8,669 bases of DNA from a virus (lineage: Duplodnaviria > Heunggongvirae > Uroviricota > Caudoviricetes), in IMG/VR virus record IMGVR_UViG_2778261708_000017; one strand, 5' to 3'. This document shows positions 1 through 8,669 of the stretch, piece after piece. The notes beneath the pieces were generated by a model, which saw only the letters and a list, made by a program, of their open reading frames with translations, had not been told where the DNA came from and searched no databases. The translations under genes and the position numbers were made by a program. How positions within the stretch are numbered: position 1 is the first letter of the stretch; each line of letters begins with the position of its first letter.

Positions 1-73
1 CGCCCTGACTTTCCAGAACCATACGGACTGCCCGTTGACGGACCTCGGGGGAAAAACGTGTATTTTTAGTCAT
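1..73 (-). CDS. IS3-family transposase OrfA, N-terminal part (partial; gene continues upstream of the window)
   Basis: ATG at 73-71 on the - strand, with a GAGG Shine-Dalgarno about 10 nt upstream. Translation is MTKNTRFSPEVRQRAVRMVLESQG..., running off the window edge. Confidence 0.75.
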   Translation of the reverse strand, partial: MTKNTRFSPEVRQRAVRMVLESQG

Positions 74-127
74 CCTGTTTACCTCTTTCTCAGGGAGTTT
101 AGTCTCCAGGATTCCCGGGGCGGTTCA
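1..127 (-). mobile_element. IS3-family insertion sequence (IS629/IS1203/IS3411-like), left-end portion, copy A; continues beyond the window start
   Basis: The reverse complement of 1-127 reads TGAACCGCCCCGGGAATCCTGGAGACTAAACTCCCTGAGAAAGAGGTAAACAGG then ATG ACT AAA AAT ACA CGT (MTKNTRFSPEVRQRAVRMVLESQG), which I recognise as the terminal inverted repeat and orfA start of IS629-type elements (from memory). The same about 127 bp recurs in the opposite orientation at 8543-8669 with about 9 mismatches counted by eye. The element boundary (TG...) falls at 127. Confidence 0.8.
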
Positions 128-660
128 ATCTGCTGGCCGGAACTAATGAATTTATTGGTGAAGGTGACGCATACATTCCGCCTCATACAGGTCTGCCAGC
201 AAACAGTACCGATATTGCACCGCCAGATATTCCGGCTGGCTTCGTGGCTGTTTTCAACAGTAATGAGGCATCGTGGCATCTCGTTGAAGATCATCGGGGT
301 AAAACGGTTTATGACGTGGCTTCCGGCGACGCGTTATTTATTTCTGAACTCGGTCCGTTACCGGAAAATGTTACCTGGTTGTCGCCGGATGGAGAGTGTC
401 AGAAGTGGAACGGCACATCCTGGGCGAAAGATGCAGAAGCAGAAAAACTGTTTCGGGTACGGGAGGCAGAAGAAACAAAAAACAGCCTGATGCAGGTAGC
501 CAGTGAGCATATTGCGCCACTTCAGGATGCCGTAGATTTGGATATTGCGACGGAGGAAGAGGCATCGTTACTGGCTGCATGGAAGACATATCGGGTATTG
601 TTGAATCGTGTTGATACAACAGTAGCAGCGGATGTTGAGTGGCCAGTCGCCCCACAATAA
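128..660 (+). pseudogene. Phage tail fibre assembly protein (Tfa / P2 gpG family), 5'-truncated by the IS insertion at 127
   Basis: Frame 1 is open from the IS boundary to TAA at 658-660 and translates [63 protein letters not shown]...[20 protein letters not shown], typical of enterobacterial Tfa proteins. There is no ATG between the IS end and the GTG at 244, and homologues carry about 10 more N-terminal residues, so the native start was removed. The ORF-track entry 244..660 is the internal GTG-initiated part. Confidence 0.8.
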
Positions 661-666
661 AAAGAA

Positions 667-696
667 AAAGCCATCGACAGAAATATCGATGGCTTT
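667..696. terminator. Putative bidirectional Rho-independent terminator between the convergent tfa and acetyltransferase genes
   Basis: Perfect 8-bp stem GCCATCGA (670-677) / TCGATGGC (686-693) with an 8-nt loop, extendable by three A-T pairs. On the - strand it is followed by TTTTTCTTTTT, giving a strong terminator 10 bp after the acetyltransferase stop at 704. On the + strand it is followed by TTTATGT, a weaker U-tract after the tfa stop. Confidence 0.6.
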
Positions 697-703
697 ATGT
701 ACT

Positions 704-1276
704 CTATTTATACAATACAACACCACTCTTTTTAGTTATATATGTGCAGTTTGATGGTATATCTTTATTTATAAAAGACATTGCACCTATTTTTACATTA
801 TCCCCAATTTTACGTGATAATCCAATGATGCAACAATTAGCTCCGATATCAACGTTACTACCAATTTTTACTCTTGAACTAGGCATATCACCATCTATCT
901 GTCCAATGGTAGTATTCTGTCGTAATACCAGATTTTCACCCGCATCAACAGCAAAATGAACAACAATTCCAGCATGATGGGGAATTGTCAACCCTTTTCC
1001 AATATTTGCGCCCAATCCTATTTCACAACCAAACTTGTTAATTATTTTACTGTTTAACTTTTTGGCTGCTTTCTTATGTAATTTATTACCATTAATATAC
1101 ATTTCGTTAGCCAACCGCCACCAGAAAAGGAAATTCCGGTTACGCTGTTTTTTCTCTCTTAAAAGCCTCCAGATATCCATACGTTTCCGCCGAATTACTT
1201 CATGTTTCCAGAAGTTTTTTAAATTAGTAGAGTTTCCAAATAAAACAAAGTGAATTGCCATTAAGTAAGATAGCAC
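704..1276 (-). CDS. Hexapeptide-repeat (left-handed beta-helix) acetyltransferase, CysE/WcaB-like; AT-rich cargo (moron) gene
   Basis: The ORF 704..1309 translation contains tandem hexapeptide motifs (FGCEIGLGANIGKGLTIPHHAGIVVHFAVDAGENLVLRQNTTIGQIDGD...KIGSNVDIGANCCIIGLSRKIGDNVKIGAMSFI) resembling serine/colanic-acid O-acetyltransferases. The region is visibly AT-rich (roughly 30% G+C by eye) against GC-rich phage genes. AAGGAG lies at 1288-1283, 6 nt before GTG at 1276, so I prefer that start; the frame is open to 1309 and an ATG lies at 1261. Stop is TAG at 706-704. Confidence 0.75.
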   Translation of the reverse strand: MLSYLMAIHFVLFGNSTNLKNFWKHEVIRRKRMDIWRLLREKKQRNRNFLFWWRLANEMYINGNKLHKKAAKKLNSKIINKFGCEIGLGANIGKGLTIPHHAGIVVHFAVDAGENLVLRQNTTIGQIDGDMPSSRVKIGSNVDIGANCCIIGLSRKIGDNVKIGAMSFINKDIPSNCTYITKKSGVVLYK

Positions 1277-1327
1277 GATAATCTCCTTAATTATTATTTC
1301 AGACCACACATGTTATAAGGTTAAGAG

Positions 1328-1356
1328 ATTATAAAATCCTGTTATTTGTTATTCAA
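1328..1356 (-). promoter_or_regulatory. Putative sigma70 promoter for the acetyltransferase gene
   Basis: On the - strand: -35 TTGAAT (1356-1351), a 17-bp spacer, and a consensus -10 TATAAT (1333-1328), about 40-50 nt upstream of the AAGGAG/GTG start. Identified by eye only. Confidence 0.45.
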
Positions 1357-1432
1357 AAACAATTTTCTGAGAAGGACATACAACAGCAAGTCGCCAGTCA
1401 CCTTCATCAGGAAATTGGCGACATACGTTAAA

Positions 1433-1927
1433 TCAGAGCAGCCCCTTAACTGAGCTGGCCGCGCTATTAAGGGATGATGTCACCTTATCTTTGAAGCCGG
1501 ACAGCATATCGCTGAACGATGAGGATTGCAGGCGCTCCCGCAAATCCTCATCACAGCGTTCAAGAGTCAGTGAAAATTCTATCTTTTTCGCCTTACCGTA
1601 GCGATCAAACTCGGAGCGGGTCGTATTCGTTCCGGTCAGGACATACATGCCGTAAATCTGCCCGACGCCATCAATCAAAGGCCAAGGACGTCCTGTATAT
1701 GCCTGCGTGGTCAACAACGACAGCGACACTTCGCCACCAGTAATCTCAGGATAAAGAACACCAGAAAGAACGATGCGATCATCACCTGCACCGATATACT
1801 GCCAGCTTGCTGAACGGTTAACGCGTTCATTTTTCACATGTCGCCAGCTTTTGTTTTGCTGTAACTGCTGATGCGGCAACGTGCGCAGCTCAAAAACAAA
1901 CATGCCGTAGATCATCATCATGGCCAT
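1433..1927 (-). CDS. Phage tail protein, P2 gpU family
   Basis: Translation MAMMMIYGMFVFELRTLPHQQ...VLSGVLYPEITGGEVSLSLL...WPLIDGVGQIYGMYVLTGTNTTRSEF matches the gpU pattern and sits directly downstream of the tape-measure gene as in P2. GAGGAG at 1935-1930 is best spaced for the ATG at 1921, so the true start may be 1921 rather than 1927. Confidence 0.8.
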   Translation of the reverse strand: MAMMMIYGMFVFELRTLPHQQLQQNKSWRHVKNERVNRSASWQYIGAGDDRIVLSGVLYPEITGGEVSLSLLTTQAYTGRPWPLIDGVGQIYGMYVLTGTNTTRSEFDRYGKAKKIEFSLTLERCDEDLRERLQSSSFSDMLSGFKDKVTSSLNSAASSVKGLL

Positions 1928-1933
1928 GACTCC

Positions 1934-4773
1934 TCAATCTTTATCGTAAAAACTGCCACGCCTGGCACGGGCGCGCCGTTCCATTTCTGCCCTGACCATT
2001 TCGCCGACCAGTTTCGCCAGTTCGCGGGGATTCTGCGTAACAACGTTATGCAGATGAACATGAATTTCACCGCCAAATCCGGAGGCAACAGGCTCCCGGT
2101 TACGGGAAGTTGCAGGAACTGATGCCACTGGCGATCGTATGGCCTCCACCACCGGGCGGGAGCTGGCCGCAACAACAGGGACCAGCGCCGGAGGCAGCGG
2201 AGCCGGGACCACGGGTGTGATATTAATTGCGGGGGCAGGCTTACTGACCTGCGCAATCTTCCGCTCCTGCCACTCCCCACGAACAGCAAGTGCGCGGGGC
2301 AGGTTCTTAAAGACAATATCGCCGGGGCCAATGCGTTTTTTTGTCTCATCAACCAGCTTACCTGTGTTATCAGCAATTTTGCTGAGTCTGCGTAGCGTGC
2401 CGGTATTGCTGTCTGTGAGAGGTTTGTTGTCTTTGGGTTTATCATCTCCGGTGCCATTGCTATTTCCCGCAGACTTCGGCGGATTGATTTTCGCAATGTC
2501 TCCCTGAAACAGAGCAACCTTGTCCTGAAGAATGGCCGCACGTTGTGCGTCTTCGATTTTCTTGCGCGCCCTTTCCGCTTCATCCGGAAGCACACCGAGT
2601 TTTTCAAGTATCCACGCCAGCGTATCCAGCAACATTTTTGCAGGCGTCAGAACAAGCTGTAACGCACCACCAAGAACGTTACCGAATACCTCGCCAGCAC
2701 TGGTACATTTATCCAGCGTTTCCTTGCTGGACTCCATCGGTGACAGCAGCGATTTAAACCAGTTAAACACCTGGCTGAACCGCTTCCGATTACGTCAAAA
2801 ACAGGGCCAAACCGTTCAAAGGTGTCGCGCAACGGGGTCAGCCTTTCCATAATCCCGCTGAACACCCCGGCAAAGAAAGCCCTGATAGGATCCCAGTATT
2901 TCCAGATAAGAACGGCAGCTCCGGCAAGCGCAGCCACGATAAGACCAACCGGACTGAACAACGCCCCGATAACGCCTCCCAGTAAAGAAACGGAACCCGT
3001 CACCATTCCCCATAGCGCAGGTAACACCCTGACGACATTCATTGACCGGGTAAGAATGTCAAAACCAAGACGCAGGGTGGCCAGCTTCCCGTAAAGCACC
3101 CCAATAACCAGCGACAACGAGCCAATCGTTGCAGTCATTGCCAGCAACGCACCGCCTGCTATCAGTAGCTGGCGCGTCAGTACCGGATGGGCCTGCGCCA
3201 GCGAGGTGATTTTTTCAAGCACCCGCGTGAGCCACTGCGTGACAGAACGCAGCGGACCGTCAACCAGATCACTGATGCGAATACGAAGACCTTCCCATGC
3301 GCTGTCGAGATTTTTCAGGTCCCCATCAAGATTATCAGCCATTACTTTTGCGACGCGATCGGCCTCTCCCCTTGCCCCCTGCAATTCTCTGGTCAGTTTT
3401 TGCAGCTCTCCTGAACCAGCCGCCGCAACAAGCGTCTGCAAACCAACGAACGCCTCTTCTCCGGCGATGTCCTTGAAGAAGGAGACCTGGTCCACCTGTC
3501 CGTATTTTTGTGTCGCCTTATAGAGATCAAGCAGCACATCCTCCATCGGGCGCATTTTGCCTCTGGCCTCAGCAACTGACACCCCCAGCTCTTTCAGTGC
3601 ATCAGCCGCAGCTTTTGGCGGTGATGCAAGGCGGGACAGACTTGCGCGCATGGCCGTGCCAGCATCGCTTCCGCGAAGACCATTATTGGCAAGCATCCCG
3701 GCCATGGCCGCCGCTTCTTCAAGACTGATACCAAGTTTTGCGGCAACCGGACCGGTATACTTCATGGTTTCGCCCAGCGCGCGTAAATCAGTATTGGTCC
3801 GGGTAAATGCTGCTGTCAGCGTATCGCCCACCCGGTCCATTTGATCGGCTGTCAGGTTGAACTGTGTGAGGATATTGGAGCCTATATCAGCCGTCTCGCC
3901 GAGTTCGACGCCACCTGCCAGCGCCATATTAAGAACACCGGGCAATGCGGCCTGAATGGCCTGCGGAGTAAAACCAGCCATTGCCAGAAAGCTCTGCCCA
4001 CTGGCGGCATCACTCGCAGTAAACTGTGTTTCAGCAAGTTTTAACGCCTGCTCACGCAGCGCCTTAAACTGCGGGCTGTTTTTGTCGATTCGCGTCAGTG
4101 CCTGAACGCGGGACATCTCTTTGCCGAACCCGATCGCAGGCTGCAAAAAACGCCCGGCAGCATAGCCGCCCGCCGCTGCCGCACCAATTGCCAGCGCACC
4201 ACCTGTTTTCAGTTTTCCCGCGGTTTCCTGCGCGTGCGAATACCGCTCACGCGCCTGCGTTACACGCGCAAGCGCCTGCCGTTCGCGTTCAAGCTGGTTG
4301 TTGTATTGTTCGGTGCGTCTGATGGCCTGCTGAATGGTGTTATCGCTGCCTGTCAGGGAAATGCCGTGGCGTTTCAGCTCTCCGCCAAGTTCCCTCATTT
4401 TCTGAATTTCCCGTGTGCGCGATTCATTCAGGCGTTCAAGCCGGGTGCTTAACTGCTGCATCAGCTTTTGTTGTTTTTCGCTGAGCACTGTACCCGTGCG
4501 TTGTAACTGATTAAGGGCGTTAAGCTGGCGTCGTGCTTTCACGATGCCAGCATCCGCTTTACTGACAGCGTCGCGGGCGCGCTCAAATGATCGCGCCTGA
4601 CGCTCGAGATTTTTGATCGCCCCCTGCGTTCGCTGGATGGAGTCACCAAACTGCCCCATCAGGCGGCGTGCGTTTTCGGCAGGTCGGGTCAGCCTGTCAA
4701 CGGCGCTGAAAGCGACCCGGATATCAAGAGTCTTCATTGTCTGCATTCCCGCTGCGAAGTGCCGCCCGCTCAC
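1934..4773 (-). pseudogene. Phage tail tape measure protein (P2 gpT-like), interrupted by a frameshift near 2770-2794
   Basis: Two overlapping - strand ORFs in different frames (2647..4773 and 1934..2770). The upstream one has coiled-coil-like and glycine/alanine-rich hydrophobic segments typical of tape measure proteins, then degenerates into a low-complexity tail after ...FERFGPVFDVIGSG. The downstream one (…GEIHVHLHNVVTQNPRELAKLVGEMVRAEMERRARA...) reads like a tape-measure C-terminus. A 1-nt indel around 2777-2781 would fuse them into one protein of about 940 aa. The start is uncertain (GTG 4773, ATG 4746 or 4737). Confidence 0.75.
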
Positions 4774-5253
4774 GCCAGCTAACCACTTCGCCGGGCGTCA
4801 TCATGAAGATTTCGGCGGGCGACCAGTTAAAAATAACGGCAATATCTGCCACAAAGTCTTCTATGTGCTCAAAGCACACAACCGTGATCAGGCTTCCGTC
4901 GCCTGTTCGTTCTTCCCGCCAGAGTCCGCACCGCTCAAAAAATTTACGGCAACCACACATAACTGAATAAAGTCACGGGATGCCATTTTTTTGATCGTCA
5001 CTTCATCCAGTCGCGGTGATGTCACGCGTGACAGCAGCGTAAACATGGATTCCGCTTTCAGATTCAGCACATCAGACAGCGACAAATCTCGCAGAGATCC
5101 AGCCTGCTCAATAGCCCCGGTGATCTCCACATACGTGATTTTTTCGCCGCCTCGCTCAATTGGTTGGGTAAGTTTTACACCACGCTCACTGGTTTCTTTC
5201 ACAGTGTCAGTAACTACCGTGTTTTCGGTATCGATGTTTTTCGTCTCTTTCAT
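4724..5253 (-). CDS. gpE+E' fusion product made by programmed -1 ribosomal frameshift (P2 E/E' type)
   Basis: The -1 frame ORF (ORF-track 4724..4960) overlaps the 3' end of gpE. Reading from the heptamer in the -1 frame reproduces its translation (...ERCGLWREERTGDGSLITVVCFEHIEDFVADIAVIFNWSPAEIFMMTPGEVVSWRERAALRSGNADNEDS). This mirrors the conserved tail chaperone frameshift of P2-like phages. Confidence 0.7.
4888..5253 (-). CDS. Phage tail assembly chaperone, P2 gpE family
   Basis: ATG at 5253 preceded by AAAGGAG. Translation ...LRDLSLSDVLNLKAESMFTLLSRVTSPRLDEVTIKKM... matches the gpE family. It lies between the tube and tape-measure genes as in P2 and contains the slippery heptamer near its 3' end. 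Confidence 0.8.
   Translation of the reverse strand: MKETKNIDTENTVVTDTVKETSERGVKLTQPIERGGEKITYVEITGAIEQAGSLRDLSLSDVLNLKAESMFTLLSRVTSPRLDEVTIKKMASRDFIQLCVVAVNFLSGADSGGKNEQATEA
4936..4942 (-). promoter_or_regulatory. Slippery heptamer T-TTT-TTG for the programmed -1 frameshift producing gpE+E'
   Basis: The - strand reads GTA AAT TTT TTG AGC in the gpE frame; the + strand shows CAAAAAA at 4936-4942. It is positioned 15 codons before the gpE stop, where the -1 frame ORF is open. Confidence 0.65.
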
Positions 5254-5307
5254 CAGGAAACTCCTTTCAGTCAGAGGCGACGCACTGCGCCGCCTGCATA
5301 TTACTTA

Positions 5308-5820
5308 TCAGCCAAGCCCAAGCGCGGAACGGATGCGATCGGGCACAATGTCCTTGCCGTCCTTCCGGTAAATGAAGTTCAGCAGGTCAATCTCCCACAA
5401 CGGGCGATCGTTAACACTCAGCTTGTAGTAGGTGTTTTTAATGGCGTAAGTGTGTGATGTGGCTTCGCCCTGTTTGGCTTCCCCCATATCAATTTCCGTC
5501 ACACGTCCGCGCATTTCGACTTCATACAGGTCGCTTTCATCATCGGTGTAGTATTCCCCCGCAAAACGCAGTAGCGTGCCGTCAATCGTGCCGCCATACT
5601 TCAGGAACAGCTCACGAACTGCGCCCCCCATGACAAAGCTCGCATCAAGCGCGGAGTCGTCCAGGCCGAGGTCAATACTTACCGCACCCATCATGCCACC
5701 ACCCCGGTAGCTGTCGGTTTTGCGCGTCAGTTTAGGCAGGGTGACGGACGTCACCTTACCCACTTCGTTTTCACCATCCACAAACAGCGTAAAAAAGCGA
5801 AGATGTTTTGGTACAGCCAT
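5308..5820 (-). CDS. Phage major tail tube protein, P2 gpFII family
   Basis: Translation MAVPKHLRFFTLFVDGENEVGKVTSVTLPKLTRKTDSYRGGGMMGAVSIDLGLDD...LLRFAGEY... resembles P2 FII. The ATG at 5820-5818 overlaps the sheath stop by one base (TGATG on the - strand), with GGAGGT 5 nt upstream, indicating translational coupling. Confidence 0.9.
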   Translation of the reverse strand: MAVPKHLRFFTLFVDGENEVGKVTSVTLPKLTRKTDSYRGGGMMGAVSIDLGLDDSALDASFVMGGAVRELFLKYGGTIDGTLLRFAGEYYTDDESDLYEVEMRGRVTEIDMGEAKQGEATSHTYAIKNTYYKLSVNDRPLWEIDLLNFIYRKDGKDIVPDRIRSALGLG

Positions 5821-7004
5821 CAGGCACCTCCCAGCACCGCAAATGCGGGACCAAAGAATTCATCAGTAAACGACTGGTAAAGCTCCATGTCTTCCAGCGG
5901 AGGAACGGGCGTATATTTGTAGCGAATACGCACACGCCCCTGACGTAAATTCGTGGTGCTGTTATCCTCGATGTCATACCAGCACTCCGCGCCAATCAGT
6001 TTCCCGGCAGTAACCAGTGAATCCAGTTTTGCCCTGATGGCACTGATAACATCCTTCACGTTCGCAGGTGTCAGTGGACTGTCGATGGTTTCAAACTGCG
6101 CTTCCGCAATTGAATCAGCCAGCACCTGTGCGGTTCGGGTATACACCTCAAAGATGTAGGCGTTCGTTTCCGGTGTGCGGTTGCCCCAGAAGCGGAACCC
6201 GTTGCGACGAATAATGGTCGTGATTTCTTTGTTGTTGAGGCTGTTGGCATCACTGTCTTCGGCCTGCAACGACCAGAACACATGCCTCGACATCCCAAGC
6301 ACATTTTTAACCGGAACGTTGGACAGCGATTTGTGCCAGCCCTGCTCATGGTCAATGTACGCACGAAGGCCGCACGCATAAGCAGGCGCGGGGAACGTTT
6401 CGTTTTTGCCACTTTTCAGGTTGTAGGCGATGAAGTCAGGCCATAAGAGCATCACCTCACGTTCGTTGAATTTCTGGCGGTAGGTAATCGCCTCAGCCAT
6501 CGTGTTACAACCATGACATGTGGCATACACAAACGCGCGCAGTTTACCCGCAATCACGCACAGGGATTTTGTTACCGCCTCCGTGTCCAGCTCCGGCGCG
6601 GCCAGAATACGCGGACGGTATCCGATGCTTTCATCCTGCTCTGCAACAAGCAGCGCATACATCCCCGTATAGCTGCCGTCAGATTCAGAACCACCGATAA
6701 CCAGTTGATCCTGCGTCTTACCGCCTTCTTCTTTGTGTTCAGCCACGCGAACGACGATCACTTTTGTGCTCACCTGGTCTGCGATAGCCTTAAGCGCACG
6801 ATAAAGCGTCCCCGTAGTCCCGCATTTTCCCAGCACGTCATTGACGCGGGTCAGCAGTGTGGGCTTGTTCAGCGGGAACAGCTCCGCGTCCGCATCATCT
6901 GCCGTTGCCACGATACCGATAACACTGGAATCAACATCATTAATCGCTGTTACCAGGTCGGTACTTTCCGTAACACGGGCACCATGAAAACGAGTTTCAC
7001 TCAT
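5820..7004 (-). CDS. Phage contractile tail sheath protein, P2 gpFI family
   Basis: The 394-aa translation carries blocks recalled from P2 FI (PLNKP, LRAFVYA, WPDF, GWHKSLSNV, IRRNGFRFWGNRT, YTRTAQVLAD, YTPVPPLE). ATG at 7004 is preceded by AAGGGG. Confidence 0.9.
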   Translation of the reverse strand: MSETRFHGARVTESTDLVTAINDVDSSVIGIVATADDADAELFPLNKPTLLTRVNDVLGKCGTTGTLYRALKAIADQVSTKVIVVRVAEHKEEGGKTQDQLVIGGSESDGSYTGMYALLVAEQDESIGYRPRILAAPELDTEAVTKSLCVIAGKLRAFVYATCHGCNTMAEAITYRQKFNEREVMLLWPDFIAYNLKSGKNETFPAPAYACGLRAYIDHEQGWHKSLSNVPVKNVLGMSRHVFWSLQAEDSDANSLNNKEITTIIRRNGFRFWGNRTPETNAYIFEVYTRTAQVLADSIAEAQFETIDSPLTPANVKDVISAIRAKLDSLVTAGKLIGAECWYDIEDNSTTNLRQGRVRIRYKYTPVPPLEDMELYQSFTDEFFGPAFAVLGGA

Positions 7005-7161
7005 AGCTTCAGCCCCTTGTATCCGTTAAATGATTCGGCAACAATCATCACCCACCACTCGCGTAATCTCACCCCTGCGCCGTTCTCCCGCCACGGCGAC
7101 AACAAAAAGCAGTAACCCCCTCCGCACGCACATGCGACCATGCCGCACAGGGAGGGAACAG

Positions 7162-7428
7162 ATGACCGACACCACCATGCAATTGCTCAGTCAGGGCACA
7201 GACCACGTGAAAGTGCCGGATTTTGATATTCTCGCGGAGGGTAAAACGCTGTCAGGCGTGGCAGAGCGCCTGATGAGCCTGTCACTGACCGACAACCGGG
7301 GATTTGAGGCGGACCAGCTCACCATCACGCTGGATGATGCAGATGGTCAGTTGCAGCTACCGCCACGGGGCGCGCGCCTGACGGTTCTCATTGGCTGGAA
7401 AGGAGAACCGCTGACAGAAAAAGGCACT
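7162..7428 (+). pseudogene. Phage late/tail protein D (P2 gpD family), 5' fragment truncated by the IS30 insertion
   Basis: ATG at 7162 preceded by GGAGGG (7151-7156). Translation MTDTTMQLLSQGTDHVKVPDFDILAEGKTLSGVAERLMSLSLTDNRGFEADQLTITLDDADGQLQLPPRGARLTVLIGWKGEPLTEKGT matches the gpD N-terminus (SLTLTDNRGFEADQL...LGW.G). The reading frame runs straight into the IS30 terminal repeat at 7429. Confidence 0.8.
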
Positions 7429-8542
7429 TGTAGATTCAATCTGTCAATGCAACACCCCTTTCAATTATCTCTTTCGGTGTTTTGAACTTCAGTGTCTTTC
7501 TCGGTCTGTTGTTTAGCTGAGCAGCAACCAGATCTAGTTCATGTTGAGTATATTGGGCAAGACATGTCTTTTTAGGAAAGTACTGCCGAATTAGCCCATT
7601 TGTGTTCTCATTTGTTCCCCGCTGCCAAGGACTCTGAGGATCGCAGAAGTAAACTTTAACGCCGGTGCTGACAGTAAATTCTAGATGTCTGGCCAGTTCC
7701 ATTCCTCTGTCCCATGTCAGTGATTTTCTGAGTTCTGACGGTAAACTCAGGAATTTGTCGGTAAGAGCCTGATTTACTGAGACAGAATCTTTGCCCCTGA
7801 GTCTGAGGATGATCGTATAACGTGATTTTCGGTCTACAAGTGTGGCTATATGAGAGTTTTTTGTACCTGAGACTAAATCGCCCTCCCAATGCCCTAGAGA
7901 GCGTCTGTTATCGATATTTCGGGAACGTTCGTGAATTGGTGTTCCGTTCACTATGTTAATCGTACCTCTTTCGCCTTTGCGGGTATGACGCCTGCCATGG
8001 CGAAGGCTATGCGACCGTCGCAGATGCTGTATATTCAGGTGGTGTAGCGCTTCACGGCTACGAAAGTACAGCGTTTTATAAATTGTCTCAGGTGATATTC
8101 GCAGCGTTTTTTGACGTGGTTTTGTTCGCCTTAACCATCCTGATATTTGCTCTGGAGACCATTTCATCTCCAGCTTTTCCAGAACAAGCTTTCGCAATGG
8201 TAAATTTTGATCCAGTAAGCACGGTTTTGGCCTTTTCGCCATTCTGTTGGCTCGGTTATTAGCATCAACAGCTTTGTAATAGCGTCTGCCCCGATTACGC
8301 TGAACTTCACGTGAGATCGTCGAAGGACTGCGATTCAGCGCAGTAGCTATCGCACGAATGCTCATTTTGGCTGACAAACCAGCTCGTATCTCCTCGCGCT
8401 CAGACAGTGTCAGGTGAGCTACAGCCCGCTTACGCTCATGGGGTTTTATGCCGCCAGTATCCCTTAACATAGTGAAGATCGTTCCGGGTTTTGAACCCAG
8501 GATATTCGCTATTTCACTGAAGCCTGTTCCGTTCTTCCATAG
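7429..8542 (-). mobile_element. IS30 insertion sequence, inserted in gpD and itself truncated or interrupted at its transposase-proximal end by an IS629-like element
   Basis: A terminal inverted repeat TGTAGATTCAATCTGTCAATGCAACA begins at 7429. The - strand ORF encodes the IS30 transposase ending ...KTPKEIIERGVALTD. The IS30-like sequence stops abruptly at 8542, where the IS3-family repeat TGAACCGCC... begins, so about 100 bp of the element (first about 15 codons plus the other repeat) is absent from this side. Confidence 0.85.
7436..8542 (-). pseudogene. insI: IS30 transposase, 5'-disrupted by the IS629-like insertion
   Basis: Translation from the internal Met (ORF-track 7436..8470) is MLRDTGGIKPHERKRAVAHLTLSEREEIRAGLSAKMSIRAIATALNRSPSTISREVQRNRG..., which I recognise as the IS30 transposase (from memory). 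The frame continues upstream through ...LWKNGTGFSEIANILGSKPGTIFT to the junction at 8542 without reaching the native start. Confidence 0.85.
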
Positions 8543-8669
8543 TGAACCGCCCCGGAAATCCTGGAGACTAAACTCCCTGAGAAAGAGGTAAACAGGATGA
8601 CTAAAAATACTCGTTTTTCCCCCGAAGTCCGTCAGCGGGCGATTCGTATGGTTCTGGAAAGTCAGGATG
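8543..8669 (+). mobile_element. IS3-family insertion sequence (IS629/IS1203/IS3411-like), left-end portion, copy B; continues beyond the window end
   Basis: TGAACCGCCCCGGAAATCCTGGAGACTAAACTCCCTGAGAAAGAGGTAAACAGG then ATG ACT AAA AAT ACT CGT. It is about 93% identical by eye to the reverse complement of 1-127, so this is a related but diverged copy in inverted orientation. Confidence 0.8.
8597..8669 (+). CDS. IS3-family transposase OrfA, N-terminal part (partial; runs off the window end)
   Basis: ATG at 8597 with GAGG about 10 nt upstream. Translation is MTKNTRFSPEVRQRAIRMVLESQD... Confidence 0.75.
   Translation, partial: MTKNTRFSPEVRQRAIRMVLESQD

Follow-up and report, generated by a model that had tools for sequence, protein, structure and literature searches.

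IS629 is a member of the IS3 family, subgroup IS51 (PMC10758439), is present in multiple copies in Escherichia coli O157 (PMC3271280), and is described in a preprint as transposing via copy-out-paste-in (bioRxiv 10.1101/2023.06.07.543989). Among the IS629 subtypes of O157:H7, the divergence is 4-5%, and an independent acquisition is considered probable (Rump et al. 2011, PMC3271280). Sp13 is the single P2-like prophage of O157 Sakai, with most morphogenetic genes absent (Asadulghani et al. 2009, PMC2669165). Here, we analyze the virus record IMGVR_UViG_2778261708_000017, a stretch of 8,669 nucleotides (the window) that starts and finishes with inverted left ends of IS629-type elements, with P2-like tail genes lying between them. 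We suggest that this inverted pair very likely arose as a side effect of IS629 activity in a prophage that is neutral and in decay, being neither a functional unit nor a composite transposon.

From position 1 to 8542, the window has 100% identity to E. coli O157:H7 chromosomes. In TX 265-1, TW14359, CDC#03-98 and other strains, the locus is annotated as flanked by ParM/stability genes and by tRNA-Leu/pgsA/uvrC, with a block of P2-type replication, ParM and stability genes on one side and tRNA-Leu, tRNA-Cys, tRNA-Gly, pgsA and uvrC on the other. Judged from its sequence, the window is a fragment of Sp13, a decayed P2-like prophage of E. coli O157:H7 that we take to be the same as CP-933T of EDL933. 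Both locus and content are shared with Sp13 (P2-type gpU, tape measure, gpE, tube, sheath and a gpD stub, but no head, baseplate or fibre genes), and nothing material differs. An intact relative (locus L015, strain 7_56_38A) occupies the same tRNA-Leu site and is 94% identical over window 127-7429. Compared with it, all head, lysis, baseplate and fibre genes have been lost leftward, and the rest of gpD, a yecA-like gene, ogr and hok rightward.

Two IS629-type ends of different subtypes

Inverted arms were recovered by a repeat search at window 4-132 and 8538-8666 (129 nt, 93% complementary). Direct comparison of the reverse complement of 1-127 with 8543-8669 gave 118 of 127 identical positions (92.9%), the 9 mismatches being located at IS positions 14, 69, 84, 93, 99, 100, 102, 125 and 126. 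Both arms open with the IS3-family terminus TGAACCGCCCCGG... and contain the ATG of orfA at IS position 55, followed by MTKNTRFSPEVRQRA... (start codon at window 73-71 on the minus strand for the left arm and at 8597-8599 on the plus strand for the right arm). Each end in the window consists only of the left inverted repeat (IRL) and the first 24 codons of orfA, while the element bodies extend off the window on both sides and the IRLs face inward at 127 and 8543. The sequence-only reading of this DNA had described inverted IS3-family left ends, about 93% identical and with inward-facing repeats at these points, which agrees with our comparison. The similarity of the arms is evidently not due to chance, since annotated IS629/IS1203 elements in thousands of E. 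coli records match the right arm at 100% identity and the left arm at 94-100%.

The remaining features of the IS3 family were found in full copies located outside the window, identical or related to the window ends. In the full copy of locus L001, the right inverted repeat (IRR) matches the IRL at 23 of 25 positions and ends in ...GGTTCA, giving the 5'-TG...CA-3' termini of the family, of which only the IRLs are inside the window. Such copies have an orfA of 108 aa and an orfB of 296 aa that overlap at AAAAAATG, and PGAP annotates a 'programmed frameshift' and an AL1L pseudoknot in them. The transposase scores 316 bits with the NCBIfam IS3 model NF033516 (cut-off 160). The orfA/orfB -1 frameshift and the DDE transposase expected for the family are therefore present in the full copies.

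In TX 265-1, the left copy has 1057 of 1310 bp and ends abruptly at plasmid-stability/ParM genes. According to the sequence of the relatives, its 1057 bp align to IS1203 at 95.08% identity without indels, and its orfB is devoid of the last 70 codons, ending in ...GDSYDN before the AMAES catalytic glutamate of the full-length protein. The complete-genome searches covered 5,426 complete E. coli genomes, and the junction between the left IS and tfa was found in 264 of them; a query with the outer flank and tfa joined over a 1057-bp gap likewise recovered 264 genomes. This site is already described. In the supplement of Rump et al. 2011, this element appears as 'IS.14, Sp 13, truncated, flank ATCTGCTGGC', with 1057 bp in Sakai, EDL933, EC4115 and TW14359 (PMC3271280). 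The left end of the window and its flank, which reads ATCTGCTGGC at 128-137, correspond to that published truncated 1057-bp element. We regard the left copy as a dead and immobile relic in all 264 O157:H7 genomes sharing the junction, and by extrapolation from these relatives it is presumably truncated in the source strain too. The sequence-only reading had mentioned, as a result that would count against its own proposal, that one of the copies could be a solo end fragment. This is largely what we have found, since in all related complete genomes the left copy stops at position 1057 of 1310 and has no IRR.

A probe specific for the left subtype finds 5 places per O157:H7 chromosome, and full-length 1310-bp copies of this subtype exist, with 99% identity to the relic and 95.3% to IS1203. 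The 4-5% divergence published for the IS629 subtypes fits the difference between the left and right copies (PMC3271280). The proposal that they are two different family members, and not the result of a recent duplication, is thus supported by the 95.1% identity over 1057 bp.

The right end (window 8543-8669) matches abundant IS1203-type copies, and features called IS629 in GenBank, at 100% identity, and the right copy is probably full length. It is inserted in an IS30 element after window 8542, a position that is not among the published IS629 sites, where IS.33 in Sp13 corresponds to window 8407 (PMC3271280). The junction (CCATAG/TGAACC) has no contiguous match in the 5,426 complete genomes, and none was found in GTDB representatives, JGI metagenomes, IMG/VR or GenBank phages. 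Since the junction occurs in none of these complete genomes, we conclude that the right copy is a recent, strain-specific insertion of an active subtype, which arose separately from the left relic, at another time and from another source. At the right site, an IS is absent from most genomes, as is the case of the O157 loci L009 and L012. Searches counting the junction mix contiguous and two-piece matches, and the 64 and 61 genomes they returned are upper bounds only. A look-up with the 344-aa IS30 ORF is nonspecific, since gene callers produce that ORF from any IS30.

The pair is very probably accounted for by the following steps. An old IS629-type element of the minor subtype would have inserted in tfa, its right 253 bp being subsequently lost in a deletion that also took the head, baseplate and fibre genes, which would have left the 1057-bp relic fixed in the lineage. 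An IS30 would have inserted in gpD. Finally, an active IS1203/IS629 would have inserted in IS30, in this strain only and opposite to the relic, via copy-out-paste-in. The three shaping transpositions would be unrelated to one another. If the last was a simple insertion, IS30 would resume to the right of the IRR with TAG followed by TTCCAAACC...

The two IS stretches in the window are both exactly 127 nt long. The largest k-mer of common de Bruijn assemblers is 127, and their contigs end one k-mer into a repeat. Considering these lengths, the window is very probably a whole short-read contig (k=127) that ended 127 nt into a repeated IS on each side. It would end in IS because assemblies break at repeats, and the 5 places of the left subtype in each O157 chromosome are consistent with a contig break there. 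The 'bracketing' by IS would then be partly a consequence of assembly fragmentation.

The right junction and the insertions clustered in IS30

The IS30 segment scores 276 bits with NCBIfam NF033563 (cut-off 80), as expected for the IS30 family, and is 99.7% identical to the IS30 copies of K-12-type strains. One terminus, TGTAGATTCAAT, starts at window 7429 and the other is beyond the right IS629; in relatives, about 61 bp of the transposase-start end are found past the insertion point of the window. The gpD flanks on either side of IS30 overlap by 3 nt. The O157 copy of IS30 has a 46-bp internal deletion that takes the transposase start codon (L001 15856-15920; also in L009, L012 and L002). 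The boundary of this deletion is 3 nt from the IS629 insertion point, probably a coincidence (about 0.07 by rough arithmetic). A truncation of IS30 at the junction was considered and rejected, as the 46-bp internal deletion begins 3 nt further on and is followed by the IS30 end. A deletion of the rest of gpD adjacent to IS30 was also rejected, as gpD is found on both sides of IS30 and the deletion on that side is a separate one of 3.3 kb located 75 bp on.

Several relatives carry IS629-type elements in the same region. Insertions were read at sites equivalent to window 7386, 7456, 7477, 7535, 7678, 7842, 7909, 8224, 8269, 8407 (the published IS.33) and 8652 (twice). These 12 insertions (loci L001, L002 and L016-L025, with a reference built from L009) are in both orientations and belong to at least 3 subtypes. 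All are of 1310 bp with a verified 3-bp duplication except the one of strain 1613, whose far flank is unplaced; target duplications of 3-4 bp and a length of about 1.31 kb are characteristic of these IS3-family elements. Including the window, there are at least 13 independent IS629-type insertions in about 1.27 kb (7386-8652) of IS30 and its edges in complete O157:H7 genomes. In the adjacent 7.26 kb of prophage DNA, which is just as dispensable, about 3 insertion classes were found: the sheath gene (FRIK944 group) and apparently the tape-measure gene are each hit by one, and the third is unplaced, the enumeration being neither exhaustive nor symmetrical between IS30 and this adjacent region. 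No target motif is evident among the clustered insertions. GC or AT content does not explain them, considering that the 34% GC acetyltransferase gene has no insertion in the genomes read and IS30 has 46% GC. Whether the defective Sp13 IS30 is a genuine regional target hot spot for IS629-type elements is, in our judgment, evenly balanced. The element at 7386 (L024 317-1626, strain CEC01302) represents a third subtype, with 95.1% identity to IS1203 and 94.6% to the left relic. IS629-like elements are also found near the transposase-start end of other IS30 copies (L003 4218 in RM10410, non-O157 chromosomes and plasmids).

These insertions bear on an alternative to a simple insertion, namely that the right junction was produced by an IS629-adjacent deletion of IS30 sequence, through intramolecular transposition or mediated by IEE, or that it is an assembly chimera. 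The junction is unique among the searched collections, lies 3 nt from the 46-bp deletion carried by all O157 copies of the Sp13 IS30, and the target duplication of the right copy is not visible in the window. Moreover, IEE and IS629 are known to give rise to deletions beside the element (PMC9943667). Nevertheless, 11 of the 12 other insertions in the same 1.3 kb are simple and have 3-bp duplications, the far flank of the twelfth being unplaced, and therefore a thirteenth simple insertion is the economical reading. With 13 sites in 1.27 kb, it is not very unlikely (about 0.07) that one falls within 3 nt of a given point. The nearest candidate ancestor, CDC#03-98, has its IS 110 bp further on, and this IS belongs to a different subtype (95.3% to IS1203), so that an origin from such an allele via a 110-bp IS-adjacent deletion was rejected. 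We consider a deletion or a chimera at this junction to be improbable, and a simple insertion of IS629 is preferred.

Inversion and composite transposition

The sequence-only reading had also proposed that the 8.4-kb segment could be inverted by homologous recombination between the IS629-type copies, in which case two orientations would coexist in the population. This is possible in principle, as the homology of the inverted copies extends over as much as 1057 bp (95% identity), including perfect runs of 125, 74 and 68 bp, and inversions between inverted repeats are common in O157:H7 (PMC8743559; PMC7430833). In the documented cases, recombination took place between prophage repeats, either 5 kb or longer (Fitzgerald et al. 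2021, PMC8743559) or 174 bp long (Stanton et al. 2020, PMC7430833). They resemble the present pair in having inverted homologous repeats in one chromosome and differ from it in using prophage repeats and spanning hundreds of kb around the terminus. With 95% identity and a longest perfect run of 125 bp, the IS pair is a weak substrate for RecA-mediated inversion.

A query was built from 1500 bp of the outer-left flank followed by window 5843-7843 in reverse complement, which falls in one place only if the segment is inverted. At a coverage of at least 80%, none of the 5,426 genomes has this inverted junction, while the matching control for the normal orientation was found in 264. No inverted allele was thus recovered, although among the 254 genomes with the locus at least 38 have an IS629-type element within IS30 or next to it, and about 17 genomes, which share the annotation pattern of TW14359, apparently have a right copy 99% like the left one, as is the case of TW14359 itself, where the right copy is 99% identical to the relic. 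From the 12 right-region copies read, 9 are inverted relative to the left relic. Furthermore, the segment contains only pseudogenes and dead-prophage remnants, and an orientation switch would have nothing obvious to regulate. Inversion is not a recurrent feature at the Sp13 locus, and we consider very unlikely that the segment exists in two orientations. The left junction is found in 264 genomes versus 254 with the IS30-to-right-flank region in one joined place, so that about 10 may have further rearrangements or deletions on the right side. In 3 strains, the right IS runs in the same direction as the relic, an arrangement in which the segment could be deleted.

That both copies and the DNA between them form a composite transposon able to move the tail genes is hardly credible, since with inward-facing IRLs the outer ends would be two IRRs, and none of the 264 relatives retains the left IRR or the catalytic part of the left transposase. 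The argument in its favor is the arrangement itself. In Tn5 and Tn10, inverted IS copies flank a segment, and here too two copies of one IS family are inverted around a DNA segment. Unlike those transposons, one of the copies has neither the outer end nor a functional transposase, the two are of different subtypes and inserted at different times, and there is no mobilised copy. Each of the O157:H7 records read has a single near-identical tail segment, located at the tRNA-Leu locus, with no second site for the unit. Other matches to the tail segment are P2-like prophages with 92-96% identity and without the IS pair. IS3-family elements transpose via a circle built from the two ends of one element, and the inner IRLs, if used, would mobilise the rest of the chromosome instead of the segment between them. 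The composite-transposon-like mobilisation suggested from the sequence is thus ruled out provided that the source strain has the same left truncation as every relative.

Some points weigh against interpreting the pair as a by-product of independent insertions. The exact right junction rests on one sequence, with the target duplication outside the window. The bodies and outer flanks of both IS copies are also off the window, so the left truncation and the right completeness are deduced from what relatives show. As for inversion, the negative result is drawn from about 35 permissive genomes in few clonal groups, and is compatible with a rare or transient inversion. The idea of a k=127 contig rests on two 127-nt lengths only.

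Gene content and meaning of the IS pair

Between the IS ends, the window contains a decayed partial tail module together with an acetyltransferase moron and another IS (Table 1). The sequence-only reading had presented the IS ends as bracketing the whole tail module, which does not correspond to what we have found, since the 8.4 kb also hold a truncated tfa, the acetyltransferase, a gpD stub and 1.1 kb of IS30. Nor does the right copy bound that module, being a strain-specific insertion within an IS30 that had already disrupted gpD.

Table 1. Features of the window and of the region to its right in relatives (positions refer to the window unless a locus is given).
Feature	Position	Strand	Evidence
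IS629-type left end, minor O157 subtype (IS.14)	1..127	-	100% to TX 265-1 left copy, 94.4% to IS1203
Tail fibre assembly gene tfa (P2 gpG-like), first 46 nt gone	130..660	+	Pfam Caudo_TAP E 5e-40; PGAP WP_001310336.1
Hexapeptide-repeat (LbH) O-acetyltransferase moron, 34% GC	704..1276	-	Weak Pfam Hexapep match
P2 gpU-like tail protein	1433..1927	-	Pfam Phage_P2_GpU E 1.5e-38
Tail tape measure pseudogene, frameshifted	1934..4737	-	Pfam PhageMin_Tail E 3e-54; PGAP 'frameshifted'
gpE-family gene	4724-4879	-	PGAP on identical L001 sequence
gpE-like tail chaperone	4888-5253	-	PGAP on identical L001 sequence; no Pfam match
Tail tube gene (FII)	5308..5820	-	Pfam Phage_tube E 1e-47
Tail sheath gene (FI)	5820..7004	-	Pfam Phage_sheath_1, Gp18_domIII_N, Phage_sheath_1C
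gpD (late control D), N-terminal 89 codons, cut by IS30	7162..7428	+	PGAP 'missing C-terminus'
Defective IS30 in gpD, interrupted by right IS629 copy, 1114 bp	7429..8542	-	NCBIfam transpos_IS30 E 3e-82
IS629/IS1203 left end, abundant active O157 subtype	8543..8669	+	100% to 1310-bp IS1203 in L001, L004
3.3-kb deletion, outside window	L001 15921-16000 vs L015 21384-24694		Comparison with intact relative

The P2-like nature of the module is supported by Pfam for the sheath, tube, tape measure and gpU, and by PGAP for gpE and gpD. These genes are damaged here, with T frameshifted and D reduced to 89 codons, and all of them are present in the intact relative L015. There, tfa begins 46 nt upstream, these 46 nt having been removed by the left IS in the window. 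The tape measure gene, intact in L015 with 2808 nt, is broken in the window into overlapping ORFs at 2647-4773 and 1934-2770, a frameshift common to all O157 relatives examined. Homology to the intact relative stops at window 7429, which is nucleotide 268 of the 1101-nt gpD gene. A separate deletion of 3.3 kb, about 75 bp past IS30, took the rest of gpD, the yecA-like gene, ogr and hok. The acetyltransferase moron, which is found in L015 too, has sub-threshold matches to NCBIfam serine/EPS acetyltransferases and is named 'serine O-acetyltransferase' by PGAP.

The sheath-tube-E-T-U operon and the acetyltransferase are opposite in strand to tfa and gpD (window 704-7428), and the same arrangement is observed in intact relatives at the tRNA-Leu site (L015 14577-22139). 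In P2, the order is collinear, H-G-FI-FII-E-T-U-D, unlike the strand arrangement in the window.

The polymorphism of IS629 in O157:H7 prophages has been described in detail and already serves for strain typing (IS-printing). Previous work had covered the left site (PMC3271280), the locus, the IS subtypes and the variation of IS629 sites between strains, and only the right-hand position is new; this unique site could serve as a strain marker, not as a discovery. The window is also a reason for caution, since a contig with inverted IS ends resembles a composite transposon or an invertible cassette, an appearance that here would be due to an assembly broken at repeats and to independent insertions of different ages. 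Only the clustering of IS629 in the IS30 remnant might be worth a systematic survey. If the hot spot is genuine, it implies a target cue in or around IS30, which might be the DNA structure, a bound protein, or the state of replication or transcription, and the right copy of the window would be one more hot-spot event.

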